This document shows positions 1,731 to 50,124 of a stretch of DNA of 64,000 bases, one piece after another. Numbering within the stretch: position 1 is the stretch's first letter; each line of letters begins with the position of its first letter. The translations under genes and the position numbers were made by a program. The stretch is from a virus (lineage: Duplodnaviria; Heunggongvirae; Uroviricota; Caudoviricetes): positions 104,585 through 168,584 of the IMG/VR virus record IMGVR_UViG_3300009500_000011. The stretch is one strand, 5' to 3'. Under the pieces are notes generated by a model. It ran no database searches, was not told the DNA's origin, and saw nothing but the letters and a program-made list of their open reading frames with translations.

Positions 1731-1732
1731 TC

Positions 1733-4195
1733 GTGATTGTTGCTACAAAATCTATCGAAGATGTTTTAAAAGTTACCGCTGAAGAATTTTTCAAGAATGA
1801 AAAGATGGCAGTTGATGTATTTAATAGTAAATATGCATTGCAAAAAAAAGATGGAAGTTTAGAAACTCCAGGCGAATGTTTTTATAGAGTAGCAAAGTAT
1901 ATTGCATCTGCTGAAATTGATGATGGATTTACAAAAGAACAGGCAGATGATTTAGCTTCACAATGGTTCTGGGCAATGTGGAATAGAGACTTTATTCCAG
2001 GCGGAAGAATTATGTATGGTGCAGGTAATCCTGATAATGTTTCATTAGTGAATTGTACTACTGTGTCTTTAGGACCTAATGCAGAATTTCCAAATCAAGA
2101 TGATGATAATATTGAAGGTATTTATCGTTCTGCTTATGAAATGGCCCGTGTGCTTTCTAAAGGTGAAGGTGTTGGTATTGATGTAACTGCTTTACGTCCT
2201 ATAAATTCGCCTGTTAATAATGCTGCGAAAACAACTTCTGGTGCAGTTTCTTGGATGAGTTTATATGATTATACTACTGGAACTATTGCACAAAATGGTC
2301 GCCGTGGTGCATTATTAATTTCAATGAAAATTACTCATCCAGAAGTTTTTGAATTTATTAAAGTTAAATCTGATTTAAATAAAATTCAAAATGCTAATAT
2401 TTCTCTTCAAATTAATGATGCATTTATGAAGGCATATAAGAATGATGAAGAGTGGGAATTTAAATGGTCTTCTCTTGATGGGAAAAAAGTTATAACTTCA
2501 ACAGCCCCAGCAAGACAAATAATGAAGGCTATTGCAGAACATAGCGCAATGTTTGCAGAACCGGGTTTGCAATTTTCAGATACTGCGGCCAGGTATTCTA
2601 ATTCTGATGCTGTGGGTTATCCTGTAATAAGTACGAATGCTTGCTCTGAACAATTTTTAACACATTTGGATTCATGTGTTCTTGGTCATGCTAATTGGGC
2701 TACATTACCATTAAACTTAGAAGAAGCAGAAGTTGAAGCAGAAAAACGAGGATACTATATTTCTTGGTTTTTAGATAATGTTGTGACTAAGCAATTAGTT
2801 GATAAACGTTCTCCACTTCCAGGTTCAGCAGAAAAATCAAGATTATTGCGTCGAATTGGTCAAGGTTTCACAGGGTTAGCAGATTATTTATCTAAGATAG
2901 GCATTTCATATGATAGTGATGCAGCAATACAAGTTGCATCTAGATTATCAAAAGCAATGACCAAAGGCGCTTATAGACGTTCTATGGATGCTGGTAAAGA
3001 ACGTGGAAGTTACTTGGCTTTTAATAAAACAAAACTTTTAAATTCAAAATTTATTCAAAATATGATTGAAGATGGAGTTATTCCTGAAAATTTTGAACAC
3101 ATGAGAAATGTTTGTAATACTACGGTTGCACCTGTTGGTACAGGTAATCTTATGGTGCAAGGATGGGCCAATGGAACTGAACCAGGTATTGGTTTTGTTT
3201 ATTGGCGTAGAACGCGCGTTTCCGGTGAATATGTATGGTACTTTGTTGTTAACGAATTTGTTTTTGAATTGCTTAAAGATTATCCAGAATTAGTTGATGA
3301 AATAAAGAACAAAGTTGCAGAAATTAATGCCACTCCAATTGGCCAAAAACGTTTTGATATGGAAGATTCGGTATTTAATTTAATTGACGGAAAAATTAAT
3401 TTAAATATTCACAAATTCTCTCATTTAGTTGACCCTATAAAAAAAGCCGATTTGATGGGCGCTGTTCAAAGATATATTGATTCTGCTTTATCAGTTACTT
3501 ATAACATGCCTTTTTCAACAACAGTTGAACAAATCGAACAATTATATGTACGTTGTTGGGAAAATGGATTAAAAGGTGTTGCAATTTATCGTGAAGACCC
3601 TCAAAATAGAGAGCCAATCTTTATGTTTCAACGTCCAGAATCATATAATTATCGTCAAGTTCCAATTTCTCCTGTCATAAAGTATATGTTATCAGAAGAA
3701 AGAGTTGTTGACAAACGTCCACCTGAATTAACAGGTAAAACACAAGTTGTAAATGCAGAAGGTCATAAATTTTATTTTACATATAATTTTAATGAAGTTG
3801 GAGATTTGTATGAAGTCTTTTGTACAACGAACAGTCGTGAGCCCAAGATTTCAACAGAAGCTGCTCAAAATGTATTGGTCAATCTTTTAGAAGAATGTAA
3901 TGTTCCGAAAGATTTTATTAATGACCAATTAGAGAAATCAAGTCACCAAGGTTCTGCACAAAAAATCACTAGATTGGTTTCATTGGCTTTACGTCACTAC
4001 ATTAGTGTTCCTTTAATCGTACTTGCTCTTGATGAACTTGAAGTTCCTGTTTCTTCATATATTTATCATTTACGCAGAGGGCTTTCGCAATTTTTACCAA
4101 GACAGGTAGAAAAATGTGCTAGTTGTGGAGAAGATTCAATGATTATTGAGAGTGGATGTGAACATTGCGATAATTGCGGCGCTAGTAAGTGTTAA
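1733..4195 (+). CDS. ribonucleotide reductase, class II (NrdJ)-like large protein
   Basis: 820 aa, GTG start after AAGGAA. STNACSEQFL...SCVLGHANW resembles the RNR NPCGE/active-site Cys region. C-terminal CxxC...CxxC zinc ribbon. Confidence 0.55.
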   Translation: MIVATKSIEDVLKVTAEEFFKNEKMAVDVFNSKYALQKKDGSLETPGECFYRVAKYIASAEIDDGFTKEQADDLASQWFWAMWNRDFIPGGRIMYGAGNPDNVSLVNCTTVSLGPNAEFPNQDDDNIEGIYRSAYEMARVLSKGEGVGIDVTALRPINSPVNNAAKTTSGAVSWMSLYDYTTGTIAQNGRRGALLISMKITHPEVFEFIKVKSDLNKIQNANISLQINDAFMKAYKNDEEWEFKWSSLDGKKVITSTAPARQIMKAIAEHSAMFAEPGLQFSDTAARYSNSDAVGYPVISTNACSEQFLTHLDSCVLGHANWATLPLNLEEAEVEAEKRGYYISWFLDNVVTKQLVDKRSPLPGSAEKSRLLRRIGQGFTGLADYLSKIGISYDSDAAIQVASRLSKAMTKGAYRRSMDAGKERGSYLAFNKTKLLNSKFIQNMIEDGVIPENFEHMRNVCNTTVAPVGTGNLMVQGWANGTEPGIGFVYWRRTRVSGEYVWYFVVNEFVFELLKDYPELVDEIKNKVAEINATPIGQKRFDMEDSVFNLIDGKINLNIHKFSHLVDPIKKADLMGAVQRYIDSALSVTYNMPFSTTVEQIEQLYVRCWENGLKGVAIYREDPQNREPIFMFQRPESYNYRQVPISPVIKYMLSEERVVDKRPPELTGKTQVVNAEGHKFYFTYNFNEVGDLYEVFCTTNSREPKISTEAAQNVLVNLLEECNVPKDFINDQLEKSSHQGSAQKITRLVSLALRHYISVPLIVLALDELEVPVSSYIYHLRRGLSQFLPRQVEKCASCGEDSMIIESGCEHCDNCGASKC

Positions 4196-4198
4196 ACA

Positions 4199-4236
4199 AA
4201 AAGGACCTAAAGCGTAAATGTTTTAGGTCCTTTACT
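4199..4236 (+). terminator. intrinsic terminator after the RNR gene
   Basis: 12-bp stem AAAGGACCTAAA/TTTAGGTCCTTT, then T-rich tail. Confidence 0.6.
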
Positions 4237-4282
4237 ACAATTACTAAGTACACAACAATATAAATCTAAGGATAAATTTTTA

Positions 4283-5812
4283 ATGTTAGATGCCGATTCT
4301 GATTCTCTTTTTGATGTACCTGTGTCACACAATTCTTTATTTTCATCTGTTACTCCAACTCCAAATCCACCCAAAAGTAGTATTTCTAGTTTTAATGAAA
4401 ATAATCCTAATAAAAGTCGTTTGGATAAATTTTTTAAAGGTTTAAGCAAAGAAGAAAAACAAGAATTAAAACGTAAAATTCAAGATGAAGCATATACATT
4501 TACTGATTCTTTGTATTCAATTATTGTTGATATAGCTCGCGGGCAAGGAAAACAAGTAATAGATTATCCTGAACGTTGGTTATTACCAGAAGACCAAAGT
4601 GATGTTGATGAAACATCAATGGCTTCATTAACTAAAAATCTTGTTATCGGGTATACAAAATATATCAATGTTGTTTACTATTTGTCATTTGATTATTTAG
4701 TTCACACGAAATATTCTATCGTTAAAAGTTTTTTAATGAGAGGTGATGAACATAGACCTCCATATAAATCTAAATTTGATATTTCTTTGGATGAACAAAA
4801 AGAAGTTGTTATTCAAGGTATTTTTCACATCATAAATAATGAAAACAAAAATAAACTTCAAGTTGAAGTTACTGATGAAGCTATTATTATTACTGGATTA
4901 AACACGGATAATGAAGCTGAAAAATTTCGTGAAACTTTTGAAGAAGAACTAAAAAATAATGATGTTTTTAAAAATAAAACTTTCACTTTTACAGATAAAT
5001 TATTTCCAAAATTTATTAAACAAAGTGGTGTTGAAAGAGCGGATGTTGTTTTCCCAAAAGAAATTTGGAAAGAAATTGAAATTAATGTTATAAATGTATT
5101 TTTAAAAAATGAACAATATGTCGCCAAAAATATACCTACTAAACGCGGTATTATTTTGGAAGGACCTCCAGGTAATGGAAAATCGTTACTTGTAAAATAT
5201 ATAGAGAATGCTCTTGCTGATAAGGTAACTTTTATTTATGTTACTGATGCTTTAGTTGCAAATCCTAATTCTTTAAGTAAAATATTTGATATTGCTCGTC
5301 GGTATACTCCGTGTGTTCTTGTTTTAGAAGATGTAGATTCTATTGGTTCTTCTAGAGAATACGGAAATCCAAGTATTACTGCTGAACTTCTTTCACGATT
5401 AGATGGTTTGGAAGAATTAGTAGATTTTGTTACTATTGCTACTACAAATTTTCCTGAAAAAATTGATGATGCATTAAAAAATAGACCTAATCGTTTTGAT
5501 AGAAGAATCAAAATTAAATTGCCAAGTCCAGAAAGATGTGCCGAACTTTTAAAAATTTCCCTAAATCATAGAGGCGTTTTAAATATAAAAAATGAAGAAG
5601 TAAATCAAATTAGTGAAAAATTAAATGGGTTTTCAGGGGCACAAATTAAAGAAGTTATTATTACTGCACAGATGATTGCTCTTTATGAAAATAGAGAAGT
5701 TGAATACAAAGATTTAATTCAATCTGTTGAATTTTTAAAAGAAAACTATTATGATGACAAAAATATCGGAGTTGGAGATACTTCTAAGAAAAAAGTAGGA
5801 TTTAGAGGATGA
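4283..5812 (+). CDS. AAA+ ATPase
   Basis: Walker A ILEGPPGNGKSLL, Walker B VLVLEDVDS, sensor and arginine-finger-like region. Confidence 0.6.
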   Translation: MLDADSDSLFDVPVSHNSLFSSVTPTPNPPKSSISSFNENNPNKSRLDKFFKGLSKEEKQELKRKIQDEAYTFTDSLYSIIVDIARGQGKQVIDYPERWLLPEDQSDVDETSMASLTKNLVIGYTKYINVVYYLSFDYLVHTKYSIVKSFLMRGDEHRPPYKSKFDISLDEQKEVVIQGIFHIINNENKNKLQVEVTDEAIIITGLNTDNEAEKFRETFEEELKNNDVFKNKTFTFTDKLFPKFIKQSGVERADVVFPKEIWKEIEINVINVFLKNEQYVAKNIPTKRGIILEGPPGNGKSLLVKYIENALADKVTFIYVTDALVANPNSLSKIFDIARRYTPCVLVLEDVDSIGSSREYGNPSITAELLSRLDGLEELVDFVTIATTNFPEKIDDALKNRPNRFDRRIKIKLPSPERCAELLKISLNHRGVLNIKNEEVNQISEKLNGFSGAQIKEVIITAQMIALYENREVEYKDLIQSVEFLKENYYDDKNIGVGDTSKKKVGFRG

Positions 5813-6513
5813 ATTTAAAATTTAAAAATCGAATTGCTTTAATTGGTAGAATGGGTAGTGGAAAATCAGAAATTGCAAAACACTTTGTCAATAGTTTAAA
5901 TTTTAAGCGTGTTGCTTTAGGTGATGCTTTAAAAGAAGAAATTGTTAATTATGGTTTAATACCTGGAAGTATTATTGAAAAAAGTAGAGATAGAAAAACA
6001 CTTCAAGATTGGGGACAACATCGCAGAGGTGAAAAAGAACGTTTTGTTTTTAAATCCAAACTTTTTCATAATAAAAATAAAGTTTCTGATGGTGTAACCA
6101 ATTATATAAATTATCAAGGGAAAAAATTAAGTCTTGTAACATACAATGTTGATTCATATAATATGATTTCCAAAAGTTTTGGTGAATGTTACCTAGATTA
6201 TTGGATTGATTTATTGATGCCAAATGTCAAAAAATTAATTGCTCAAGGTAATTATGTAATTAATGATGATATTCGTCGTCAAAATGAACTTGATGCTTTT
6301 AAATATATGGGATTTACTACTGTAAAAATATCTGTTGAAAACGATATAAGATATAAACGATTAAAAATTAGAGATAATCAATCTGATTTTGATGAGTCTA
6401 TTATGAATGATATTTCAGAAAATGAAATAGATTCATTAATTGCTGATTTCGATATTAGTAATAATGGTACAATTGAAGAAACTTTGAGTACACTATATCA
6501 ATATATAATGTAA
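5809..6513 (+). CDS. P-loop nucleotide/nucleoside kinase (dNMP-kinase-like)
   Basis: N-terminal Walker A IALIGRMGSGKSEIAK; start overlaps the upstream stop (ATGA). Confidence 0.45.
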   Translation: MNLKFKNRIALIGRMGSGKSEIAKHFVNSLNFKRVALGDALKEEIVNYGLIPGSIIEKSRDRKTLQDWGQHRRGEKERFVFKSKLFHNKNKVSDGVTNYINYQGKKLSLVTYNVDSYNMISKSFGECYLDYWIDLLMPNVKKLIAQGNYVINDDIRRQNELDAFKYMGFTTVKISVENDIRYKRLKIRDNQSDFDESIMNDISENEIDSLIADFDISNNGTIEETLSTLYQYIM

Positions 6514-6605: not shown

Positions 6606-6983
6606 GTGAGAACATTTGACGACGTAAGTCCAGAAAAACATAAAGAAATATCTATAAAAGTTTTAAAATATTGGTTAAAAAACATTTATAAGATGGATGG
6701 TTTATCAACTCCGTCTAATGGTGTTATCAAGCAAGAAGATATTTTATTGCAATCTCAACAACTAGGTAATGTTTTTTGTTTAAAATTAGATATTACTGCT
6801 GCAATTGATACGTTACCACTTCGCTTAAAAAAAATTGTTTATCTTCATTATATAATTGGTTTCCCGGTTAGTAAAATTTGTTTAATGTTAGGGTTTAAAT
6901 TTCGTGTTGACCTTTATAGAAGACTTGACGAATGCTTTGAAATAATGTATGATTTTTTAGGACCTAATTGGTTACGTTCTTAA
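6606..6983 (+). CDS. sigma-70 region-4-like HTH protein (possible second subunit of a bipartite sigma)
   Basis: LPLRLKKIVYLHYIIGFPVSKICLMLGF...LYRRL resembles sigma region 4.2 (LxxRER...HTH); GTG start. Confidence 0.35.
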   Translation: MRTFDDVSPEKHKEISIKVLKYWLKNIYKMDGLSTPSNGVIKQEDILLQSQQLGNVFCLKLDITAAIDTLPLRLKKIVYLHYIIGFPVSKICLMLGFKFRVDLYRRLDECFEIMYDFLGPNWLRS

Positions 6984-6994
6984 TAAGAATCAAT

Positions 6995-7546
6995 ATGGAA
7001 AATCTTTTAAAATCAGCAAAAAATATAGGATGTATTGGGACTAAGGATGATTTAGACGAGATTAGAATTAAAACTTGTCTTTTGATTGGTTATTGGATAG
7101 CAAAACAAAATAAGTTTGTTCATAGTGGAAACGCTAAAGGTTGTGATAATTTGTATGCAACTGGAGCAAATAATGTTAATCCATCTTTGGTTCACTTATA
7201 TTTAAGTGATAATAAGCATAATTCTAAATTCATAGTAGATGGAAATATTTTACATTATCAAGAAGATTTTCCTGATTGGTCTGGAATTGCTGAAATGTAT
7301 CATCCGCGATACAATTTCTTGCCGAAATATGCACAAAAACTGTTTAATCGTAATGCTGGAATTGTTCTTGCTTCGGATTTAGTTATCGCTATGCCAAGTA
7401 GATTAAAGTCTTGGGGTGGTGGAACAGGACATGGAATGAAGATAGCCAAAGGTCTTGGTATCCCAGTTATTAATTTGAGCCGAGAAGAAGAAAGAGAAGA
7501 AATTATTAAATTTATATTAAATGATAGCGACGTTTTTTCGTTGTAA
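6995..7546 (+). CDS. SLOG-family (DprA/LOG-like) Rossmann-fold protein
   Basis: GGGTGHGMKIAKGLGIPVINL resembles the DprA/Smf-LOG C-terminal motif; start set at ATG 6995. Confidence 0.3.
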   Translation: MENLLKSAKNIGCIGTKDDLDEIRIKTCLLIGYWIAKQNKFVHSGNAKGCDNLYATGANNVNPSLVHLYLSDNKHNSKFIVDGNILHYQEDFPDWSGIAEMYHPRYNFLPKYAQKLFNRNAGIVLASDLVIAMPSRLKSWGGGTGHGMKIAKGLGIPVINLSREEEREEIIKFILNDSDVFSL

Positions 7547-7561: not shown

Positions 7562-8041
7562 ATGGAAATTATAGAAACTACTACTTCCGAAAGCGCAAAC
7601 CCACTTATAATAGATGAATTAGACTCAAAGACTCAGGAAATGGTTGAAGAAATTATTGCAAAGGAACCTCAACAACCCTTGCATGTTGTTTCAGAGATTC
7701 CAATAACTATGGATAATTTTGATTTATTAAAGAAAAAATATCGTCCATTAATGTGGAGATATATTCGTTTGGTGCATAATATGCATAATAAATCTGTTGA
7801 ATTTGATGATTTAGAACAAGAAGCAGATTGGGCATTATGGAATTCAATTAAAAATTTTGATGATACTAGAAATGTATTTTTTCCTGTTTATTTAGGTAAA
7901 GCTGTGCTAAATCGCTTATTATGTTATTGTCGAAATTACTTACCTCATTTCTATAAAAAAGACCCCGAAAAAGAAGGTAAGTTTAAGCGTGTTAAAGTTA
8001 ATGTTGATACTTTAGACGACCCAAATACTTATAATTTTTAA
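7562..8041 (+). CDS. sigma factor, region-2-only type (gp55/SigO-like)
   Basis: FDDLEQEADWALWNSIKNFDDTRN.VFFPVYLGKAVLNRL matches sigma-70 regions 2.1-2.4 (DLIQEG..GL..A..KFD...G..F.TYA..I); no region 4. Confidence 0.4.
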   Translation: MEIIETTTSESANPLIIDELDSKTQEMVEEIIAKEPQQPLHVVSEIPITMDNFDLLKKKYRPLMWRYIRLVHNMHNKSVEFDDLEQEADWALWNSIKNFDDTRNVFFPVYLGKAVLNRLLCYCRNYLPHFYKKDPEKEGKFKRVKVNVDTLDDPNTYNF

Positions 8042-10647: not shown

Positions 10648-10676
10648 TTGACAATATTTAACTTTTATGGTATTAT
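10648..10676 (+). promoter_or_regulatory. sigma70-type promoter (TTGACA-N17-TATTAT) upstream of the AdoMetDC/ligase/Thg1 block
   Basis: Exact -35 hexamer, 17-nt spacer, 5/6 -10. Confidence 0.5.
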
Positions 10677-10714
10677 AATAATTTGTTCGTCTTCTTAAAG
10701 GATTTTATGTTAAA

Positions 10715-11146
10715 TTGGAAGCTTTTGGAACTCATGTGATTCTTGAATTATCACAATGCGTAAATATACATTCATTTGATTCTAACGAAACGCTTGAAGT
10801 GATGATGTTGGAATCTGTGCAAAAAGGAAATTTAAGTCCTTTGCTAATAAAGACTCATAAATTTGACCCTCAAGGCATTAGCTCTGTAGCTATTTTGCAA
10901 GAAAGTCATTTAAGTTGTCATTTATTTCCTGAGATAGGATATGCTTCAATGGATGTTTATACCTGTGGAGAACAAAATAGAGTGGGTGCATATCTTGCTG
11001 CATCTAATTTTGCTTTTTGTATAGGTGCAAAAGAAATAACTATTTTAGGCTTAAAAAGAGGTATTCCCTTTACTAAAGGTTATACCTATAGAATAGATAC
11101 AGAATCATATAATTTATTTTATGATGATTTCTTAGGGAAAATATAA
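10715..11146 (+). CDS. S-adenosylmethionine decarboxylase proenzyme homologue (pyruvoyl-dependent, SpeH/class 1B)
   Basis: GTHVILELSQC...LQESHLSCHLFPEIGYASMDVYTCGE matches the bacterial AdoMetDC motifs (G.H...E..C ... ESH.S.HT.PE.GYA..D.FTCGE), including the self-cleaving Glu-Ser site. TTG start. Confidence 0.7.
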   Translation: MEAFGTHVILELSQCVNIHSFDSNETLEVMMLESVQKGNLSPLLIKTHKFDPQGISSVAILQESHLSCHLFPEIGYASMDVYTCGEQNRVGAYLAASNFAFCIGAKEITILGLKRGIPFTKGYTYRIDTESYNLFYDDFLGKI

Positions 11147-11659
11147 ATGGATTTTTTAGTTGGCGATATATTAGTTTTAAAACAAGATGCTCTTGACCTT
11201 GAAGATAAAACTGGCAAAACAATTTTATATCCCGCAGGTTCCGAAGCTGAAATTATACAAATAAAAAATGAAAATGAATATCATCTGCAATTTCCAGATG
11301 CCAAAATATGGCCTCATGACTTGGCAACTTTATTGATTTTCTTTAATCGTAAAAAAGATGGTAAAAATGTTTATACTCGCCAGGTTTCAGAGTATGGTAC
11401 GCCACCAAAAGAGCTTGCTTTTTATATACCTAGAGAAGTTGATTGGCGTAAAAACTATAGGTATACTGTCAGAATTGAAGCAGAAGATTGTGGCTTTAAA
11501 AAATTGATTTGTCCTAGTTGTTTCAATGACCTGGGAGAAAATGGCGAACCAGATAATGAAGGTTTGCAAAAATGTCAAAAATGTGGTACAATGGTTCTCC
11601 CGATAGACCCATTAACATTCAAGTATCCACATGATGACGGAAATGAACACACAACTTAA
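11147..11659 (+). CDS. hypothetical protein with C-terminal CxxC...CxxC zinc ribbon
   Basis: CPSCFNDLG...CQKCGT. Confidence 0.35.
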   Translation: MDFLVGDILVLKQDALDLEDKTGKTILYPAGSEAEIIQIKNENEYHLQFPDAKIWPHDLATLLIFFNRKKDGKNVYTRQVSEYGTPPKELAFYIPREVDWRKNYRYTVRIEAEDCGFKKLICPSCFNDLGENGEPDNEGLQKCQKCGTMVLPIDPLTFKYPHDDGNEHTT

Positions 11660-12935
11660 GAGTAATTCTCAAAAATTCTTAGAAGCAGCAAATTGGGCTC
11701 TTGTAAAAGAACGCTTTGGCGAAGATACAGGAGTTAATATTCGTCGCGCTTCTATAGATAATGTGCAAAATATTACGCTTTTCAATGGTTCAAAAGGTTT
11801 ACTTTTTGATGGATATTCGTTTCCTGAACAAGAACATCTTAAAGGCTTGATTGTTCACGAAGTATTAGGAAGCGCACATTCGGTTATAGCGGCATGTTTT
11901 CCTAAATTCTATAACTATGGCGAACCTGCTGAAAAACAAAAGCATCTTGAATACTTAAATGACGATTCTATGAGTGTGTTATTTGCTAAGAAAGAGGATG
12001 GAGTAAATATTCGTCCTTATTTCAATGCTGCAACAAATAGAGTTGAATTTGCTACGCGCGGAACCTTGCTTGTTGTTTCTGATATTGAAGAAACGTCTAA
12101 TCTTGATTATGGCGCAATGGCTCGTTCAATTGCAGAAGAAAAATATCCAATTCTTTTGGATGAGGAATTTGTAAAGAAATACTCTTGTATTTTTGAAATG
12201 ATTCATCCTGATTCCAAAATTCTTACGGATTATGGACAAAGAAAAGACCTTATTCTTCTGTCAGTATTTGATTTAGAAAATAACTGCTATGAATTTTCGC
12301 GTGAATGGGTAGCATCTTGGGCAAATATAATTGGGTTAAATTATGTTGAATATTGGTTTGACCAATATGCGCCTGTTTCTGAATTTTCTTCTTTAGTTGA
12401 AAAACTACTTAAAAAATGGAACGAAACGGATGTAGAAGGTTCTGTTGTTATATTTGTAAACTCTGAAGCAGAACCTGTATATCGTCTTAAAGTTAAAAAT
12501 GCTTATTATTTACAAATGCTTCGACTTGCAAAATTTTGCACTTTGAAGAATTTAGTCTCAATCATGGAAGAAAATAACTTTTCAAATTGGGAACAACTTC
12601 GTGCATATTTGTACGAAAGCCCTTCAATGAATGAAGAATTAGAAATGGCATATAAGGCTCATTTTGATGTATATGAAAATTGGTTAGCAAATCTTGAAAT
12701 CGAAAAACAAAATGTTTTAAAAGAATATCAAGAATTACCTTCTTTCGAATTACAAAAAGATTTTGCTTTATACATCTTAAAAGATGGCGCTTATCCATAC
12801 AATCCGCTATTCTTTGCTATTCGCAAATGGTTAGCAGAAGCCAAAAATCCTAATTTAGAACAATTCTTTGAAGAAAATGTTAAAGCAACAGTAATGTTGA
12901 AGAAAATCTATCCACTATCGGAAGTAGAGGAATAA
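11631..12935 (+). CDS. RNA ligase (T4 Rnl1-like nucleotidyltransferase)
   Basis: Motif I FAKKEDGVN (KxDG), motif IV-like DVEGSVVIF, motif V-like YRLKVK. Confidence 0.55.
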   Translation: MMTEMNTQLKSNSQKFLEAANWALVKERFGEDTGVNIRRASIDNVQNITLFNGSKGLLFDGYSFPEQEHLKGLIVHEVLGSAHSVIAACFPKFYNYGEPAEKQKHLEYLNDDSMSVLFAKKEDGVNIRPYFNAATNRVEFATRGTLLVVSDIEETSNLDYGAMARSIAEEKYPILLDEEFVKKYSCIFEMIHPDSKILTDYGQRKDLILLSVFDLENNCYEFSREWVASWANIIGLNYVEYWFDQYAPVSEFSSLVEKLLKKWNETDVEGSVVIFVNSEAEPVYRLKVKNAYYLQMLRLAKFCTLKNLVSIMEENNFSNWEQLRAYLYESPSMNEELEMAYKAHFDVYENWLANLEIEKQNVLKEYQELPSFELQKDFALYILKDGAYPYNPLFFAIRKWLAEAKNPNLEQFFEENVKATVMLKKIYPLSEVEE

Positions 12936-12936
12936 C

Positions 12937-13443
12937 ATGGGTTTATTTGATTATGTAATTTGTGATTATCCTTTACCTGATTCATATAAAGGGAGTATTA
13001 AGTTTACAACTAAAGACTTAAATTCTTTTATGAATACTTTTACTATTACTGAATCAGGTCAACTTTTAGAACACAAATTTCATTTTGAAGAAGTTCCTGA
13101 AGAAGAACGTCCTAAATTTAATACACCCGAATGGAATTCTGATAACGAAACAATTAAAACTTGGACACGCTTAATGGGTTCAAAGATTCAAGTATTTGAT
13201 GGCTTGGAACCCTACCTTTACACAGGTGCTGTTTGTTTTTACGGTTCAAATTTAGATAGTTGTAATTCGGATGGATATTATACTACAGAAAATGATGAAC
13301 CTTATGAATACAAAGAATACATTGCTTTGTTTAAAAATGGTATGTTAATTAACATTATTGAAAATAATGAAAAAGACAATGAATTTTTTACTCCAGAATG
13401 TTTTTTAACACAAAAACAGTATAAAGAAAAATATAATGAATGA
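12937..13443 (+). CDS. hypothetical protein
   Basis: Track ORF between the ligase and the Thg1-like gene. Confidence 0.4.
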   Translation: MGLFDYVICDYPLPDSYKGSIKFTTKDLNSFMNTFTITESGQLLEHKFHFEEVPEEERPKFNTPEWNSDNETIKTWTRLMGSKIQVFDGLEPYLYTGAVCFYGSNLDSCNSDGYYTTENDEPYEYKEYIALFKNGMLINIIENNEKDNEFFTPECFLTQKQYKEKYNE

Positions 13444-14197
13444 CTCGCTTGGCGACCGAATGAAAACATATTATGAAGATGTGACGCGGCATTACTTGCC
13501 TCGGCGAACTCATACAATTATTCGGTTAGATGGAAAATCTTTTCATACGTATACAAAAAAATTAGCAAGACCATTTGATGCTGGTTTGATTGAAGATATG
13601 CAAAAAACCACAATTCGACTTTGTGAGAATATTCAGGGCGTTGTTCTTGGTTATACGCAATCTGATGAAATATCTCTTGTTTTATGTGATTATAAAGAAA
13701 AAGAAACTGAATCCTTTTTTAAAGGTAATATTCAAAAAATTTGTTCAGTATCTGCAAGTATGGCTACTGCATTCTTCAATGCTTTTAGACAAGCCCGTAA
13801 TTTTGAAGGTGGTCCAGCATTTTTTGATGCTAGAGTATTTACTATTCCAGAAAAGGTAGAAGTTCTTAATTATCTTATTTGGAGACAAAAAGATGCAACA
13901 AGAAATTCTATTCAAATGGCCGCACAATCTGTTTATTCTCATAAAGAACTTAATAAAAAGAAGTGGTCTGATTTAAATGAAATGCTTTTTCAGAAAGGTA
14001 TTAATTTTAATGATTATTCTTCTTCTGAAAAACGTGGTTCTTTAATTGTGAAAGAATATTTTGAAGGGGAAGCCTATGATAAGCGTAAGCAAGAAAATGT
14101 TATAGTTACTCGGTCGCGTTGGATTGTAGAACCTGAAACACCTCTTTTTACTGCTGAAGAAAATAGAGATTTATTTGAAAGGTATTTATATAAATAA
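13436..14197 (+). CDS. Thg1-like protein (tRNA-His guanylyltransferase / 3'-5' polymerase family)
   Basis: N-terminal GDRMKTYYE...HTIIRLDGKSFHTYTKK and SDEISLV match the Thg1/TLP signature. Confidence 0.6.
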   Translation: MNDSLGDRMKTYYEDVTRHYLPRRTHTIIRLDGKSFHTYTKKLARPFDAGLIEDMQKTTIRLCENIQGVVLGYTQSDEISLVLCDYKEKETESFFKGNIQKICSVSASMATAFFNAFRQARNFEGGPAFFDARVFTIPEKVEVLNYLIWRQKDATRNSIQMAAQSVYSHKELNKKKWSDLNEMLFQKGINFNDYSSSEKRGSLIVKEYFEGEAYDKRKQENVIVTRSRWIVEPETPLFTAEENRDLFERYLYK

Positions 14198-14282
14198 ATT
14201 TAGTTATTTTCTGACTTCTTTTCATGTCGAATCGCGTACTCTATTGACATGAAGAAATTTCTCGGAAATTTTCCCTACAAAA

Positions 14283-14322
14283 AAGCCAACCATTTGTAAT
14301 AATAATGGGTGGCTTTTTGTTT
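14283..14322 (+). terminator. intrinsic terminator after the Thg1-like gene
   Basis: AAGCCAACC...GGGTGGCTT + TTTTGTTT. Confidence 0.45.
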
Positions 14323-14349
14323 GAAAAACACTATTTATGATGGAGAGCA

Positions 14350-15051
14350 ATGTATATGCCAAAAAAACAATCTTCTCAAACACCTAGAAGAATTCCAACC
14401 ATAAGAACGGTACAATTTGAAGCCCAAACAATAAATCAAGAGAAGTTTGTAAAAAATATAGAAAGAAATGTTGTTTCATTCGGAATAGGTATACCAGGTT
14501 CAGGAAAAACGTATTTAGCATTAGCAACTGCTCTTAAAGCATTAGTTGAACAAAAATGTGAACGAGTTGTAATAACTAGACCAATGGTTGAAGCAGGTCC
14601 TTCTATCGGATTCCAACCTGGAAATGAAGAAGAAAAACTTGGAGTATATTTAAAACATATTTATGATATGATATATAAATTACTACCAAAAGTTTTGGCA
14701 GATGATTTGCTTGATTCAGGAAAAATATCAATTGGTGCTATTACATTTATGAGAGGAATGAATTTTGAAAACTCATATGTAATAATAGATGAAGCCGAAA
14801 ACTTAGACAAAAAATCATTTTATTTGTTATTAACAAGAATTTGTGAAGGGTCTAAAATGATTTTTTGTGGTGATACTGGCCAGGTTGATTTAAAAAATCC
14901 TAGTGAAAGCGGATTAAATGATGCAGTTTTAAAATTTCAAGGTAAAGAAAATTTTAGTGTAACTGAATTTACTATTGAAGATTGTCGCAGAAGTAAAGTT
15001 GTTATGGAAGTTATTAAAGCATATTTCCCTAACTCAACCAAGACAAAGTAA
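14350..15051 (+). CDS. phoH: PhoH-like ATPase
   Basis: GIGIPGSGKTYLALA Walker A, VIIDEAENL Walker B, typical PhoH length and GDTGQVDL motif. Confidence 0.75.
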   Translation: MYMPKKQSSQTPRRIPTIRTVQFEAQTINQEKFVKNIERNVVSFGIGIPGSGKTYLALATALKALVEQKCERVVITRPMVEAGPSIGFQPGNEEEKLGVYLKHIYDMIYKLLPKVLADDLLDSGKISIGAITFMRGMNFENSYVIIDEAENLDKKSFYLLLTRICEGSKMIFCGDTGQVDLKNPSESGLNDAVLKFQGKENFSVTEFTIEDCRRSKVVMEVIKAYFPNSTKTK

Positions 15052-15102: not shown

Positions 15103-16095
15103 ATGTTGTTTTTTGCAAATAAAATTAAAAAAATTGCATCAACCCCTTTATGGGCAAATGTTGTAAATTTAGATGACGGCTCTGGTCCTGTACAAGGGTT
15201 TTGGGTTGATTCAAGTTTGGGTATGCCATTCTTTTTAAGAAAATCCGACCATGTGATTTGGTTGCCTAAAACTTTACGTGGCAAAAAAATTGATTCTTTA
15301 ACACCAGAAGAATTACAAAATGTTCCGAAAGAAGATTCTGGAAAAGTTCATTATAAAAATTGGAAAGCAAATTCAGATAAAAGAAATATTGCCGCAAAAT
15401 TATTTAATGGATATGCTTTTACGGACGCTGGAATTCAATTAGTTCAAGGATTAAAAAAATTAGCAGATAAATATGAATTAGATGATGTTACAAATGTTCG
15501 TCTTGAACGTCGTCTTTCCATCAATCCTGGTCTTTTTGATAGACTTTTACAATGTAATAATCTTCAAGATGTTCAACGTCTTGGGCGTCTTATAGTAAGA
15601 AAATTTGTTTTCATTATTAAAAATATGAGTTTAACTGAACCTAAAATTGCCAAAAGATTAGATGCTGATTTTATGTATCAATACAAAAAAATTGAACCTC
15701 TTTTTGATATTGACCCGCTATCTATAGATGTAGAACTTCCTGAAACATTTGAAGAAAATGAAATTCCAGACCCACGTTTAGACCATGTTAAAGTTTTAAT
15801 GCAAAATTGTGAAGCAGAAATAGAACCAATGATGGATAATGACCTTCAGCTTTCTGCACCTCTCACTTGGCTAAAAGATGCTTCTAAAGTGCTTAAAAAA
15901 GCTCAAGATATTCAATCTGAAAATATAATGGAAGAAGTAAAATTTTATCTTATTTCAATGATTTTTTCTCTTCAAAAATTAGCAAAGGTTGCTCCTGCTG
16001 ACCATCCTCTTGTAGGTAAAGTCGAGCAAATTTTGAATGCTAAAAGTCTAAGTGCCATTTTAATGGCACTTGCAAAGACTGACCCGCAAATGTAA
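15103..16095 (+). CDS. hypothetical protein
   Basis: 330-aa track ORF with a GAGG RBS; no motif recognised. Confidence 0.4.
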   Translation: MLFFANKIKKIASTPLWANVVNLDDGSGPVQGFWVDSSLGMPFFLRKSDHVIWLPKTLRGKKIDSLTPEELQNVPKEDSGKVHYKNWKANSDKRNIAAKLFNGYAFTDAGIQLVQGLKKLADKYELDDVTNVRLERRLSINPGLFDRLLQCNNLQDVQRLGRLIVRKFVFIIKNMSLTEPKIAKRLDADFMYQYKKIEPLFDIDPLSIDVELPETFEENEIPDPRLDHVKVLMQNCEAEIEPMMDNDLQLSAPLTWLKDASKVLKKAQDIQSENIMEEVKFYLISMIFSLQKLAKVAPADHPLVGKVEQILNAKSLSAILMALAKTDPQM

Positions 16096-16302
16096 TATAG
16101 AGTCATGGAAGAAATAATTCGGGGTCGTTCTAATGAAGTTATTGGACGCCTCATCAAATCAAATGGCGAAACTAGTGTGTACGGTGACCGAGGTCAATAT
16201 CTTGGTTATGCTAACCAAAATGGAACTTTCGATGCTTCTGGGCGTCTTGTAAGCAATTCGGAATCTCCTACCCTACTTCTTCGGTAATAGTCGATAAAAT
16301 TG

Positions 16303-16331
16303 TTGACAAATCTATTTTAATAGACTATACT
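16303..16331 (+). promoter_or_regulatory. consensus promoter TTGACA-N17-TATACT (sRNA candidate)
   Basis: Exact -35, 17-nt spacer. Confidence 0.55.
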
Positions 16332-16337
16332 TTCAAT

Positions 16338-16468
16338 AGGACCCGTTGTAGGGACACCCGCCTGGGTATGACAGTCACTTGTCGTTTTGCCGGGCTGACC
16401 AAGAAATAGTGAACATTTTGCGGTCGTATTAAATAACCCCAGCGTGACTTATGTTCGCTGGGTTTTTA
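16338..16468 (+). ncRNA. candidate small RNA (~130 nt) between a consensus promoter and an intrinsic terminator
   Basis: TTGACA(16303)-N17-TATACT(16326-31) then no ORF, GC-rich hairpins, terminator CCCAGCG...CGCTGGG+TTTTT at 16437-16468. Confidence 0.4.
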
Positions 16469-16509
16469 ATTTGTTGGAAAACACTCTCAAAAATTTTTTT
16501 GAACGAATG

Positions 16510-16538
16510 TTGACAAAACTAAAAAAATGGCATATACT
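16510..16538 (+). promoter_or_regulatory. consensus promoter TTGACA-N17-TATACT (small ORF 16653..16775 and the tRNA cluster)
   Basis: Exact -35, 17-nt spacer. Confidence 0.55.
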
Positions 16539-16652
16539 ATAAATGCGAGCGGGCGGTTTAGTATCGCGTGAGTCTCATAAGCTCATCAAACTGGCGCAAA
16601 TCCACGGCTACGCAACCAATTTTTTAAATATTGAGGGAAGGAGATAATCAAA

Positions 16653-17234: not shown

Positions 17235-17308
17235 ATTTTGAGTTGCGCTAGAATAAAGTTACTTCGTCTGTAAAACGAGGAATCCGGGTTCGAGTCCCGG
17301 TCGGAATC
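17235..17308 (+). tRNA. tRNA-like element / possible pseudo-tRNA (anticodon loop CTGTAAA = GTA)
   Basis: Acceptor ATTTTGA/TCGGAAT (with G-U pairs), anticodon stem TTCGT/ACGAG, canonical T-arm CCGGG-TTCGAGT-CCCGG. No convincing D-stem; no CCA. Confidence 0.3.
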
Positions 17309-18372: not shown

Positions 18373-18615
18373 ATGCAAAAAATTCAAATTGTTTATACAG
18401 ATAATCCAAGTGAAATAGAAGCAGTTTTTATTGATGGTAAGATAGTTGCTGCTTGGTATTTAAGTGATGCAAGTTGGCGTGGTGAATATTTTAATGGATT
18501 CATGGGAAAACTTGGTATTGAAGTAGATGATTATAGTCGAGCAACTTCGGAACAAATTGAATCTATTAAAGATTGGTTTAATTTAGATGAAGATGAATTA
18601 CTTTATGCCTTATGA
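18373..18615 (+). CDS. hypothetical protein
   Basis: Track ORF; its 3' end overlaps the tRNA-Gln 5' end. Confidence 0.4.
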   Translation: MQKIQIVYTDNPSEIEAVFIDGKIVAAWYLSDASWRGEYFNGFMGKLGIEVDDYSRATSEQIESIKDWFNLDEDELLYAL

Positions 18616-18676
18616 TGTAATGGTAGCATAAGATGCTCTGAACATCTTTGTAATCGTTCGAGTCGATTTAAGGCAG
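18606..18676 (+). tRNA. tRNA-Gln (anticodon CTG)
   Basis: Acceptor TGCCTTA/TAAGGCA, stem AGATG/CATCT, loop CTCTGAA, T-arm AATCG-TTCGAGT-CGATT, G73, no CCA. Confidence 0.6.
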
Positions 18677-18684
18677 CGATTTAA

Positions 18685-18943: not shown

Positions 18944-18948
18944 ATCAT

Positions 18949-19020
18949 TGGAGTGGTAGCATAGAGGTAATGTACCGTTTTATCGCGAGCGGGATGAAGG
19001 TTCGAGTCCTTCCCCTCCAG
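18949..19020 (+). tRNA. tRNA-like gene with 8-nt anticodon loop (TTATCGCG) - identity unclear
   Basis: Acceptor TGGAGTG/CCCTCCA (one mismatch), D-arm GCAT-AGAGGTA-ATGT, stem CCGTT/AGCGG enclosing 8 nt, canonical T-arm GAAGG-TTCGAGT-CCTTC. Confidence 0.35.
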
Positions 19021-19040
19021 TTCTTTTTTAAAAAGAAATC

Positions 19041-24446: not shown

Positions 24447-24935
24447 TTGAAATATTTTTTTGATACCGAATTCATAGAAAATGGAGAAACTATAGACCTA
24501 GTAAGTATAGGTATTGTTTCTGAAATTGGACGTACTTACTATGCAATTAGTAAAGAATTTGACCCTACCAAGGCTGACCCTTGGGTTATTGAAAATGTTC
24601 TAACTCTTTTAGTTAAAGATGGTAAGCCAATCGAACCTGAAAATTGGAAAAGTCGAGAACAAATTAAGAATGATATTTTAACATTTGTTGATGATGAACC
24701 TGAATTTTGGGCTTGGTACGGAGCTTATGACTGGGTATGTTTAGCACAATTGTTTGGTAAAATGGTAAATTTACCAAAACATTTTCCCATGTATGCCAGA
24801 GATATAAAATTATTATCAGAATTAAAGGGTAATCCTCCTAAGCCTCCTCAAGCAGGAAGTAAGCATAACGCTCTTGAAGATGCAAAATGGAATAGAATGT
24901 TTTATAATATGCTTATCAAGATGCCTTACGTTTGA
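24447..24935 (+). CDS. DEDDh 3'-5' exonuclease
   Basis: Exo I FFDTEF, Exo II YGAYDW, Exo III HNALEDAKW. Confidence 0.55.
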   Translation: MKYFFDTEFIENGETIDLVSIGIVSEIGRTYYAISKEFDPTKADPWVIENVLTLLVKDGKPIEPENWKSREQIKNDILTFVDDEPEFWAWYGAYDWVCLAQLFGKMVNLPKHFPMYARDIKLLSELKGNPPKPPQAGSKHNALEDAKWNRMFYNMLIKMPYV

Positions 24936-24938
24936 TAC

Positions 24939-24967: not shown

Positions 24968-24973
24968 GTAAAT

Positions 24974-25188: not shown

Positions 25189-25197
25189 AATAACTAT

Positions 25198-29682: not shown

Positions 29683-30408
29683 ATGATTAATACATATGTT
29701 GTAGGGGACGTACACGGTTGCTACGATTCTCTAATCGAATTACTAGAATTGGTTAATTTTAATGTTGACCGAGATATGTTAATAAGTGTTGGCGACCTTG
29801 TAGATAAGGGTCCAAAAACCAAGGAAGTTTTAGACTTCTTTATGAAGTATGGTTATCCTGTGGTTAGAGGCAATCATGAAGATAAGATTGCTCGTCTTGC
29901 CAAGGGAAACAAGATTAAGATTAACTCTGAAATTCAAGATACTGTTGAACAACTTGGAGAAGGTTGGCAGGAAACGTATGGCCTATTTCTTCAATCAATG
30001 CCATTATATCTTCCGTTTGAAGATGCTTTGGGTAAGGGATATATTGTCCACGGTGGCGTTGCACCAGACCTTCCTATCGAAAGGCAAAGTTCTAATTTCT
30101 TAATGCGTCTTAGAACGTGGCCTTTTGAAGAATATGTACGTGGGGTAGAGGCAACTCAACCTCCTTGGCAGACTGAATATAGAGGTCACTTAGGAACAAT
30201 ACTTCACGGGCATATTCCAAGTGCAGGCGTAATGTATGCAGGTTCTGAAAAGCATGGAAATCCCAATGTATATTCATTGGATGGTGGATGTGTTTACGGG
30301 AATGACCGTCCTTGGGGCGGTAGTCTTCGGGCTATTAAACTTGATACTAGAGAGATTTTCTCTGTTCCCGGTAATCAAGAACAAACAGAACATTATAACA
30401 GTTTGTGA
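29683..30408 (+). CDS. PPP-family Ser/Thr (lambda-type/ApaH-like) phosphatase
   Basis: GDVHGCYD, GDLVDKGP, RGNHE signature motifs. Confidence 0.65.
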   Translation: MINTYVVGDVHGCYDSLIELLELVNFNVDRDMLISVGDLVDKGPKTKEVLDFFMKYGYPVVRGNHEDKIARLAKGNKIKINSEIQDTVEQLGEGWQETYGLFLQSMPLYLPFEDALGKGYIVHGGVAPDLPIERQSSNFLMRLRTWPFEEYVRGVEATQPPWQTEYRGHLGTILHGHIPSAGVMYAGSEKHGNPNVYSLDGGCVYGNDRPWGGSLRAIKLDTREIFSVPGNQEQTEHYNSL

Positions 30409-30888: not shown

Positions 30889-31186
30889 TGATAAGTGCGA
30901 AACATGCGATGGTAAAGGTACATGGGAAGTACCCTGGGATGAAGTTGATGATGCAACCAAGGCTATGCTTGGTGGCATTGATGACTTGATAAGTAAATTT
31001 CCTGGTTCTAAATTGGGTCCATTAGTTTATAATTGTCCTGATTGTCAACAAACTGGTTCGCAAGCCGTTCGAGAACAATGGTCAATAAATCGTTTAGACC
31101 CTAAAAAACATGAGTATGTTTTTCAATGTACTGATGGTGACCCTTGTTGGGAATGTAAAGCAGAGAAAAAAGAGCATTTAAAATGA
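30878..31186 (+). CDS. zinc-ribbon protein
   Basis: CETCDG ... CPDCQ ... CWEC. Confidence 0.35.
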   Translation: MNIDDKCETCDGKGTWEVPWDEVDDATKAMLGGIDDLISKFPGSKLGPLVYNCPDCQQTGSQAVREQWSINRLDPKKHEYVFQCTDGDPCWECKAEKKEHLK

Positions 31187-32001
31187 TTGATTATACAACA
31201 AAACCGGATTTAGGAAAATTATCTGAATCAGAATTTTTTGATTTAGATAATCCGCCTTTTGATATTCAAAAACATTGTTTATATTCAGTCATATCTGGTT
31301 CAAAAGCATATGGATTAGATACGCCTACAAGCGATACTGATATTCGTGGAGTTGTATATTTACCAGAAAGAATGTTGCTTGGTTTAGGTAGATTTGAACA
31401 AATTGAAAATCAAAGCAAAGATATTTGTTATTACAGTCTACAAAAACTTTTTAATTTGGCATTAAAAAATAATGTTCATGCAATGGAAATGCTTTGGATG
31501 CCAAAAAGAACGGTTAACTTTATACATCCTTTATTTGAGCAAGTTCTAGATAATAAAAATTTATTTATGTCTAAACGCATTGCATATACTTGTGGTGGAT
31601 ATGCTTTCCAACAAGTTAAGGTTGCCTTTACAAAGATGAAAAATAAGACTGGTAGAGTTAGTTTATTAGAACAATTTGGCTATGATACTAAATTTATGAG
31701 TCATAGTATTCGTATTTATAGAATGGCCCGTGAAGCATTAGAAACAGGTTTTCTAAATGTCTATCGACCTGATAGAGAGTTTTTACTTGATGTTAAGGTT
31801 GGTAAATATAAACTTGAAGATATTGTTGTTATGGGTAAAAATTCAGAAGGTAAAGATACTTTTGTTGGTGGATTATTAGCAGAAGAATTGCGACTTTTTA
31901 ATGAAGCACTTGCAAAAACAAAATTACCAACCGACCCTCCTTTCCAAAAAATTGAAAATCTTTTAATTAAAGTTCAAAAAGAAGCTTTATCTTTTAATTA
32001 A
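31183..32001 (+). CDS. nucleotidyltransferase-fold protein (pol-beta superfamily)
   Basis: GSKAYGLDTPTSDTDIRGV fits the GS-x(9-13)-D-x-D motif. Confidence 0.4.
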   Translation: MIDYTTKPDLGKLSESEFFDLDNPPFDIQKHCLYSVISGSKAYGLDTPTSDTDIRGVVYLPERMLLGLGRFEQIENQSKDICYYSLQKLFNLALKNNVHAMEMLWMPKRTVNFIHPLFEQVLDNKNLFMSKRIAYTCGGYAFQQVKVAFTKMKNKTGRVSLLEQFGYDTKFMSHSIRIYRMAREALETGFLNVYRPDREFLLDVKVGKYKLEDIVVMGKNSEGKDTFVGGLLAEELRLFNEALAKTKLPTDPPFQKIENLLIKVQKEALSFN

Positions 32002-50046: not shown

Positions 50047-50124
50047 GGTGTTTGTAGTGTAGTGGTTTTAGCACGTTAGCCTGTGAAGCTGAAAGGGCCG
50101 TTTCGAATACGGTCAAACACCCCA
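50047..50124 (+). tRNA. tRNA-His (anticodon GTG) with genomically encoded G-1
   Basis: G-1 + acceptor GTGTTTG/CAAACAC, stem TTAGC/GCTGA, loop CTGTGAA, T-arm GCCGT-TTCGAAT-ACGGT, C73-CCA. Confidence 0.7.

Follow-up and report, generated by a model that had tools for sequence, protein, structure and literature searches.

A compact, predicted early-gene segment with an Rnl1-type RNA ligase and a Thg1-like protein in an uncultured, probably jumbo, tRNA-rich phage

Results

We analysed a 64,000-nt stretch of Caudoviricetes DNA (positions 104,585 to 168,584 of the IMG/VR record IMGVR_UViG_3300009500_000011), referred to below as the window, and in it the gene block at 10648–15051. This block is probably the compact version of an early-gene segment whose order is shared across a lineage of uncultured, tRNA-rich and probably jumbo phages; an ATP-dependent RNA ligase of the Rnl1 type and a Thg1-like protein (TLP) encoded in it would act as RNA-repair enzymes. 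Our analysis showed that both proteins fall into these families with their catalytic residues intact, that their genes are closely packed, that the linkage of ligase and TLP recurs in distant loci, and that end-healing domains are fused to several of the ligase's relatives. From these findings we infer the substrates, the order of the steps and a purpose in counter-defence.

The window is AT-rich and phage-like (GC ~32%). It encodes a primase, a ribonucleotide reductase (RNR), AAA+ ATPases, sigma-like proteins and 32 tRNAs called by ARAGORN, 29 of which were confirmed by Rfam. No near DNA match to the window was found among GenBank phages, in which its primase and a 1191-aa protein had remote protein matches only. 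Two relatives of the ligase lie on contigs of ~313 kb, and the lineage is therefore probably one of jumbo phages.

The RNA ligase

The ligase matched PF09511 (RNA_lig_T4_1) at 1e-16. Its motif I, K121-E-D123-G124, pairs with K99-E-D-G of T4 Rnl1 and is invariant in 17 sequences of the clade; T142R143, E189, E269G270, K287xK289 and K92F93xN95 are likewise invariant across the clade. The segments FE(M/F)xxP, EGxV, KxK and KFYN align with FEFVAP, EGYV, KIK and EKFFN of the T4 protein, in which the roles of the essential residues were reportedly established by mutagenesis in the Shuman laboratory. A PDB search with the single ligase sequence gave spurious matches only, and the same search with a profile of the 17 clade members gave T4 Rnl1 as the sole match (6e-9). 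When the AlphaFold2 model (mean predicted local distance difference test score, pLDDT, 88) was compared with PDB by Foldseek, T4 Rnl1 came first (7e-13), followed by fungal Trl1 (~1e-10) and archaeal Rnl3 (~1e-9), with DNA ligases at 2.6e-4 or worse. The template-modelling scores (TM-scores) of these matches were just 0.46–0.56, which indicates that the domains are placed differently. By profile and modelled fold, the product of 11631..12935 is thus confirmed as an RNA ligase of the Rnl1/Trl1 clade. A reading of the window from its letters alone (the sequence-only reading) had called it an Rnl1-type RNA ligase with a KEDG motif, which is what we found at 121–124, and had named a DNA ligase as the identity that would overturn this call. 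That identity is ruled out by the PDB profile match to T4 Rnl1 only and by the low rank of DNA ligases in the fold comparison.

A phmmer search with the ligase against 1.84 billion representatives gave 393 matches at E ≤ 1e-3, 89 at ≤ 1e-10 and 17 at ≤ 1e-30, and a word index gave 20 relatives, which are metagenomic without exception. Several longer relatives are fused to end-healing domains, in the arrangements kinase-Metallophos-ligase (P0081, P0085), Metallophos-ligase (P0044, P0054, P0059, P0060), ligase-kinase (P0037) and ligase-HD-kinase (P0033), the kinase domain being AAA_33. As judged from their domain assignments, these fusions follow the pattern of domains typical of RNA healing and sealing. 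Another relative, P0034, carries an apparent intein. In one locus of the clade the ligase is fused to DUF6065 (L006, 10001–12016); a free-standing DUF6065 gene lies between ligase and TLP in another (L093, 2581–3315).

In T4, Rnl1 (gp63) and Pnk heal and seal tRNA-Lys cleaved by PrrC. The window ligase resembles T4 Rnl1 in its clade, in motifs I, Ia, III, IV and V, in the upstream KFxN and in a C-terminal domain that is all-helical in the model, and also in being phage-encoded and, by prediction, expressed early. However, the two share only ~15% identity in the structural alignment. The window protein is longer (434 aa; T4 Rnl1, 374 aa), being extended at its N terminus by a helix and sheet, and belongs to a small subclade with a clade-specific partner, X. 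The window also lacks a Pnk of the T4 type, the candidate healer being a λ-phosphatase-like phosphoesterase. In Clostridium thermocellum Pnkp, the kinase, metallophosphoesterase and ligase are joined in one protein, and P0081 and P0085 have exactly that architecture. In the window, by contrast, the ligase stands alone, the phosphoesterase at 29683, which matches the Pnkp phosphatase domain, lies 17 kb off, and the kinase domain was not found. The Pnkp ligase domain was outside the top 50 structural matches of the window ligase, the best being T4 Rnl1 and Trl1.

It is highly improbable that the ligase serves mainly outside repair, either in tail-fibre attachment, as does T4 gp63, or in the processing of phage RNAs, intron-containing or permuted tRNAs for example. 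PHROG 562 is indeed annotated as 'RNA ligase and tail fiber protein attachment catalyst', and ARAGORN called long or odd tRNAs at 23092 (83 nt), 25104 (85 nt) and 18948. But the invariance of the catalytic motifs across the clade indicates selection on ligase chemistry, relatives of the ligase carry fused healing domains of the kinase and phosphatase types, and the gene is found behind an early-type promoter, among genes of nucleotide and RNA metabolism and not among structural genes.

The Thg1-like protein and the phage tRNAs

The TLP matched PF04446 (4e-29) and phrog_4717 (2e-84), and Thg1C weakly (1e-4). With the Bacillus thuringiensis TLP 4kgk, whose structure has been published (PMC3701042), the match was full-length (6e-56, residues 3–252 against 2–238), while matches to eukaryotic Thg1 ranged from 1e-13 to 1e-15 (3wbz, 6e-15; human 3otb, 1e-13). 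The segments IIRLDGKSFH and TQSDEISL align with both 4kgk and 3otb, the metal-binding DG and SDE motifs being kept. At the WRQxD site, the window protein has WRQKDATRNSI as in the bacterial TLP, whereas eukaryotic Thg1 has WRQVDCHINNLY (D-C-H-I-N-N-L-Y). These alignments confirm the product of 13436..14197 as a TLP of bacterial type in the 3'-5' nucleotidyltransferase family. TLPs repair 5'-truncated tRNA through templated nucleotide addition (PMC4820378).

TLP homologues were found in at least 164 GenBank phage records (165 places in 2.3 Gb), mostly of large tRNA-rich phages, and GenBank annotations name them tRNA-His guanylyltransferase. The window TLP is at most 49% identical to any of them and 60% identical to the TLP of the metagenomic loci L003 and L004. 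It also differs from these phage 'tRNA-His guanylyltransferases' in being packed together with an Rnl1-type ligase, which is uncommon in the cultured phages sampled. We know of no experimentally determined function for any phage TLP.

In each of the 29 well-formed tRNAs the acceptor stem is paired throughout and CCA is encoded. Position −1 is T or A in every one of them except tRNA-His, which encodes its own G-1 as the sequence-only reading had noticed, with G at 50047 directly before G1. Since G-1 is encoded opposite C73, the TLP is not needed to make it, and a requirement for the TLP in G-1 maturation is unlikely. Together with the paired stems and the encoded CCA, this argues against a need for maturation or editing. 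Editing of tRNA 5' ends as in protist mitochondria was rejected as well, all 29 of the 29 well-formed tRNAs having paired acceptor stems and CCA.

In vitro, bacterial TLPs are efficient at adding G-1 across from C73. The window TLP might serve tRNA-His identity, restoring or guaranteeing G-1 on phage or host tRNA-His after its removal by RNase P or a nuclease; C73 of the phage tRNA-His would template the addition, and the public annotations name just this activity. We consider this quite unlikely. The encoded G-1, the sole non-T/A base at −1, implies normal processing by bacterial RNase P; the TLP lacks the eukaryotic Thg1 signature at WRQxD and is closest to a repair-type TLP; and operons elsewhere link TLP to ligase, Pnkp and RlaP.

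Three further tRNA calls fell below the Rfam gathering score (Tyr 17242–17308, Gln-ctg 18606–18677 and Val-tac 58131–58213), and the acceptor stems of the first two are unpaired as called. The ARAGORN call at 18948–19021 has a four-base anticodon, 'atcg', and scored only 35 bits with Rfam.

Promoter and layout of the block

The promoter at 10648 (Table 1) had been claimed from the letters alone. The window has 10 sites that depart from TTGACA-N17-TATAAT by at most one mismatch, every one on the + strand, against 1.71±1.26 in shuffled windows, and at least 10 were reached in 0 of 100 shuffles. The near-consensus set thus exceeds the shuffles, and the 10648 promoter, with its 11/12 match, is more than chance. 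Several of these sites stand directly 5' of tRNA genes. As predicted from sequence, host-type promoters serve this region of the phage, that at 10648 among them.

AdoMetDC (the homologue of S-adenosylmethionine (AdoMet) decarboxylase), X, the ligase (Rnl), Y and the TLP form a five-gene unit of abutting or overlapping genes. The AdoMetDC stop abuts the X start (11146/11147), there is a 29-nt overlap between X and Rnl, Rnl and Y are separated by 1 nt, and Y and TLP overlap by 8 nt. The 152-nt spacer between TLP and PhoH contains a hairpin (ΔG −16 kcal/mol, z −2.9) with a T-run. Hairpins with T-runs were found at the same place in L001, L092 and L093, where the stem sequences differ yet still pair. 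The role of this spacer element may be that of a terminator for the operon, of a short leader or of a small RNA. In the window (14190–14349), L001 (15340–15441), L092 (7177–7270) and L093 (4394–4557), the hairpin and then the T-run come after a conserved motif, ...TAT..ATATGA(A/G)GA.

The sequence-only reading had described a block of four genes, including PhoH, behind one promoter and immediately upstream of the tRNA cluster. All four family identities held, but the open reading frames (ORFs) number seven and the terminator-like hairpin sets PhoH apart from the TLP. Nor is the block immediately upstream of the tRNA cluster, as the first tRNA begins at 16876, 1.8 kb past PhoH, with two strong promoters and a terminator in between. 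In the dense tRNA cluster, ARAGORN made 15 calls by 20026 and 22 by 27979.

X represents a new small family. It has nine members with four invariant cysteines, and these are on ligase-bearing contigs wherever this could be traced. X is always encoded shortly upstream of a ligase of this clade. In the model of X (pLDDT 82.6), a zinc ribbon comes after a small SH3/Tudor/KOW-like barrel, and on this model X may be an RNA- or ligase-binding accessory. X was also considered as a detached domain of the longer ligases; hhalign of its profile against P0019, P0033 and P0035 gave nothing. For Y and for Z, which is encoded with PhoH after the hairpin, no family was found in Pfam, PHROGs or PADLOC beyond a weak match of Y to phrog_1615 (6e-6), and tblastn found no homologue of Y in any related locus.

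Relatives and the linkage of ligase and TLP

The order X-Rnl...TLP-PhoH is common to the window, L001, L091, L092 and L093. L001 has AdoMetDC, X, Rnl, two ORFs, a methyltransferase, PfkB, a glycosyltransferase, a small ORF, TLP and PhoH, and L092 has AdoMetDC, X, an epimerase, an HTH protein, Rnl, three ORFs, TLP and PhoH. In L091 the order is X, Rnl, three ORFs, a lipid desaturase, TLP, HNH, PhoH and Ku; in L093 it is X (cut), Rnl, two ORFs, DUF6065, a small ORF, TLP, PhoH and Ku. L006 has X, Rnl fused to DUF6065, PhoH and Ku, and in L003 TLP is followed by three ORFs and Rnl, with TLP and Rnl within 2.2 kb. Among the clade loci examined, the window has the most compact form, with one small ORF between ligase and TLP. 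Judging from gene order, the backbone (AdoMetDC), X, Rnl ... TLP, PhoH is inherited, and the Rnl-TLP interval is a slot for variable cargo.

For a more distant comparison we used 80 IMG/VR loci with Rnl1-type ligases of 21–34% identity. TLP was found in 2 of the 80, both times in the same operon as the ligase. L048 has RlaP, Rnl, Pnkp (kinase and HAD phosphatase) and TLP as overlapping genes, and L016 has HD, a TLP overlapping Rnl, and then a second HD-type protein. By chance ~0.1 TLP loci would be expected in 1.5 Mb, as calculated from the 165 places in 2.3 Gb of GenBank phages, which is a rough figure as the collections differ. In L069 and L008, a phosphoesterase of the λ-phosphatase/Pnkp type adjoins an Rnl1-type ligase. 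The suggestion of the earlier reading that the Thg1 homologue may serve repair rather than maturation is supported by its 4kgk subgroup, by the encoded G-1 and by these TLP-ligase-Pnkp-RlaP-HD operons.

Several findings weigh against the view of the block as a repair segment. The interval between ligase and TLP holds a methyltransferase, PfkB, a glycosyltransferase, a lipid desaturase or DUF6065 in relatives, and TLP is absent from L005 and L006; the variable inserts and the loss of TLP in two relatives mean that ligase and TLP are not obligatorily coupled. None of the cultured phages sampled (BcepSaruman, GAP32 and Aeromonas phage 4L372D) has a TLP beside an RNA ligase. AdoMetDC was near the ligase in 0 of the 80 distant loci, so that its link is clade-specific. 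No polynucleotide 5'-kinase was found in the 64-kb window, the genome probably being >300 kb: tblastn of the L048 phage Pnkp against the window gave a best E of 0.27, and a Walker-A scan found only a protein like deoxynucleoside monophosphate (dNMP) kinases, PhoH and two AAA+ proteins. We also know of no bacterial defence that truncates tRNA 5' ends.

Alternatively, the block might be an accessory-gene island without functional coupling, in which AdoMetDC, PhoH, ligase and TLP each act alone and are neighbours through inherited order, AdoMetDC as a polyamine auxiliary metabolic gene, PhoH as the common phage 'phosphate-starvation' ATPase, and ligase and TLP as RNA enzymes unrelated in function. 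The unrelated inserts, the two losses of TLP, the confinement of AdoMetDC to the clade and the separation of TLP from ligases in the cultured phages are in keeping with it. So is the synteny in L005 and L006, which, as shared ancestry predicts, extends far beyond the block, with RNR, AAA, dNMP kinase and sigma genes upstream as in the window, then AdoMetDC, X and Rnl, and later PhoH and Ku. However, we regard an uncoupled island as somewhat unlikely, because independent TLP-Rnl operons occur in distant contigs with Pnkp, RlaP and HD genes and start and stop codons overlap within the five-gene unit of the window. In bacteria, moreover, Thg1 has been reported in gene neighbourhoods that include polynucleotide kinase, Macro and RNA ligase (Anantharaman, Iyer and Aravind 2010, PMC2904730).

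In L001, a related contig of 313 kb, the region 1–5290 contains an IS605 OrfB/TnpB (Cas12f-like) gene and a DNA polymerase III alpha gene split into several ORFs (PHP, two DNA_pol3_alpha pieces and finger/HHH).

The AdoMet decarboxylase homologue and PhoH

The first gene product of the block matched PF02675 (1e-22) and phrog_3125, and scored 90 bits with the NCBIfam equivalog TIGR03330 (cut-off 75.65). It aligns from residue 1 to Thermotoga maritima 1tlu (1e-14). Its ESHLSCH...TCGE pairs with ESHLTIH...TCGE of 1tlu, so that the equivalents of S63, H68 and C83 are kept, which are the essential residues of the T. maritima enzyme (PMC10407285). The product of 10715..11146 is confirmed, by these profiles and this alignment, as a homologue of class 1b pyruvoyl AdoMet decarboxylases.

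AdoMetDC is the commonest phage polyamine gene, and spermidine supports translation and phage replication (PMC9992855). The claim of the sequence-only reading that phage AdoMetDC homologues have drifted to other decarboxylase specificities is correct, as some of them decarboxylate arginine or ornithine instead (PMC9992855, PMC10407285). The window protein is similar to the phage class 1b AdoMetDC/SpeD proteins (Li et al. 2023, PMC9992855; PMC10407285) in being small and in having the processing Ser together with the His and Cys. It is, however, longer (143 aa) than the characterised arginine and ornithine decarboxylase forms (117–122 aa). No spermidine synthase was seen among the window ORFs scanned. 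The homologue most likely acts apart from repair, and would raise decarboxylated AdoMet and spermidine, favouring translation.

PhoH matched PF02562 at 1e-60 over profile positions 3–204 of 205. It has the Walker A motif GIPGSGKT and the Walker B motif VIIDEAEN, and no PIN or KH domain, and these features confirm the product of 14350..15051 as a core PhoH ATPase. PhoH has been called enigmatic (PMC7824862). It was near the ligase in 3 of the 80 distant loci. By its family and gene order, PhoH is an RNA-associated ATPase linked to the ligase by clade synteny only.

Other putative RNA-repair genes in the window

Further genes with putative roles in RNA repair are listed in Table 1. The phosphoesterase at 29683 is a candidate end-healing partner of the ligase on the strength of its profile matches. 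The kinase at 5809–6513 was considered as a Pnk and rejected, as it is of the dNMP kinase type (phrog_139, 8e-27). SPFH modules such as that among the tRNA genes were reportedly proposed as RNA repair scaffolds by Burroughs and Aravind in 2016.

Between 24447 and 32001 (+), a group of RNA and nucleotide enzymes is interleaved with tRNA genes. In the 560-nt gap 5' of the TROVE/Ro60 gene we identified a tRNA-like element (44941–45014, +), which scored 32.0 bits on the Rfam tRNA model (gathering score 29; E 8.7e-5 with the gap searched alone). It was missed by ARAGORN and by the full-window Rfam scan, and TTGCAA-17-TATAAT lies 5' of it. By its position and score, this element fits a bacterial YrlA-type Y RNA as encoded beside rsr.

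Table 1. Predicted features of the block and of the remaining window (positions in the window).
Feature	Position	Strand	Basis or remarks
Sigma-70-type promoter, TTGACA-17-TATTAT, extended −10 TG	10648..10676	+	11/12 consensus positions
AdoMetDC homologue, 143 aa, TTG start	10715..11146	+	PF02675, TIGR03330
X, 170 aa	11147..11659	+	SH3/Tudor/KOW-like barrel and four-Cys zinc ribbon
Rnl1/Trl1-clade ATP-dependent RNA ligase, 434 aa	11631..12935	+	PF09511, motifs, fold
Y, 168 aa	12937..13443	+	weak phrog_1615 match only
TLP, bacterial type, 253 aa	13436..14197	+	PF04446, phrog_4717
Hairpin and T-run, intrinsic-terminator-like	~14277..14322	+	within the 152-nt TLP-PhoH spacer
Core PhoH-like P-loop ATPase, 233 aa	14350..15051	+	PF02562
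ORF after PhoH	15103..16095	+	without family match; 40–45% identity in L005, L006
60-aa ORF	16105..16287	+	
RNase AS-like 3' exoribonuclease	24447..24935	+	176 bits, below the 200-bit model cut-off
Two further metallophosphoesterases	25588–26253, 48496–49146		Metallophos matches
DUF4326	26263	+	in the 24447–32001 group
Nucleoside deoxyribosyltransferase-like	28853	+	in the 24447–32001 group
λ-phosphatase/bacterial Pnkp-type metallophosphoesterase	29683..30408	+	TIGR04075 (Pnkp) positions 184–419, 2e-20; phrog_246 (λ NinI-like), 2e-35
Deaminase	30463	+	in the 24447–32001 group
RlaP (RNA-ligase-associated Pol-beta nucleotidyltransferase)	31183..32001	+	PF10127, 5e-17; phrog_388, 4e-47
Ro60/TROVE and vWA protein	45439–47205		PF05731, 4e-32
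tRNA-His, encoded G-1, C73, CCA	50047..50124	+	G 50047 before G1 50048; discriminator C 50121
Band-7/SPFH and flotillin protein, among tRNA genes	55186–56619	+	PF01145, 8e-29

Two elements were observed between the block and the first tRNA. At 16303–16472 (+), an 11/12 sigma-70 promoter at 16303 is followed by a GC-richer stretch of 135 nt, which folds at −46.1 kcal/mol (z −3.0), ends in a hairpin and T-run and has no Rfam match; its predicted fold makes it a candidate for a small RNA encoded shortly before the tRNA array. At 16510–16628 (+), another promoter with an 11/12 match stands in front of a sequence that resembles a cloverleaf and has CUCAUAA (CAU) as its anticodon loop, together with an encoded ACCA and a T-run. 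Neither ARAGORN nor Rfam called this sequence, its T-arm is defective, and the z-score of its fold is only −0.4; possible identities are a decayed tRNA and a tRNA-like RNA.

Upstream of the block, small proteins similar to sigma-70 region 4 and region 2 are encoded at 6606–6983 and 7562–8041 (+), with a SLOG-family protein (6968–7546) between them, and this arrangement is kept upstream of the block in L001, L005 and L006. By this similarity, the two small proteins may be phage sigma factors.

Discussion

We propose that transcription from the host-type sigma-70 promoter would run through AdoMetDC, X, Rnl, Y and TLP to the hairpin terminator, with PhoH and Z after it. The ligase would reseal broken tRNAs or other RNAs bearing 3'-OH and 5'-phosphate ends, which would be healed first; plausible healers are the λ-phosphatase/Pnkp-like phosphoesterase at 29.7 kb and a 5'-kinase encoded outside the window or supplied by the host. 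The TLP would rebuild missing 5' nucleotides by templated 3'-5' addition, acting either on a truncated acceptor stem or, ahead of ligation, on the 5' end of a 3' fragment. The ligase and TLP, along with RlaP, the phosphoesterase, Ro60/TROVE with its tRNA-like RNA, RNase AS and the 32 phage tRNAs, may protect translation from host tRNA-targeting defences. The expanded tRNA-repair toolkit suggested by the sequence-only reading is therefore supported for the ligase and the TLP by profiles, fold, operons and the other repair genes, but not for AdoMetDC and PhoH, which are linked to the ligase through synteny within the clade only.

A bolder possibility is that X, the Rnl1-type ligase and the TLP, and possibly PhoH as an RNA-remodelling ATPase, make up one dedicated pathway that rebuilds tRNAs which have not just been nicked but have lost nucleotides, for example through RloC-like wobble excision or 5' damage to the acceptor stem. 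The TLP would add the missing nucleotides to the 5' side of the 3' fragment for the ligase to seal, and X would be the tRNA-recognition subunit. We regard such a pathway as unlikely; if true, it would give phage TLPs a defined role in counter-defence.

The idea that phage Thg1 and RNA ligase act in repair is not new. Phage Thg1 has been suggested as a possible RNA repair enzyme against host defences (PMC2904730, 2010), and the RNA repair kits of jumbo phages have been described to include Rnl1, Rnl2, RtcB, kinases, phosphoesterases, RlaP, a CCA-adding enzyme, sporadic Thg1, ROT/TROVE and PhoH (Iyer, Anantharaman, Krishnan, Burroughs and Aravind 2021, PMC7824862). The window shares with these kits an Rnl1-type ligase, RlaP, phosphoesterases, Thg1, ROT/TROVE with a tRNA-like RNA, PhoH and many tRNAs. 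It differs from the systems in both papers in that GenBank phages offer its lineage no close match in DNA and only distant ones in protein, that AdoMetDC and X share the transcription unit, and that the TLP-PhoH adjacency is conserved within the clade.

The block is thus a new compact example of the known RNA-repair kits of big phages and not a new type of system. It fits the current picture and leaves it unchanged. The five-gene unit of the window, with its predicted early promoter and terminator and with phage tRNAs that need no 5' completion, and the L048 operon are concrete constructs for asking whether 3'-5' polymerisation belongs to phage tRNA repair.

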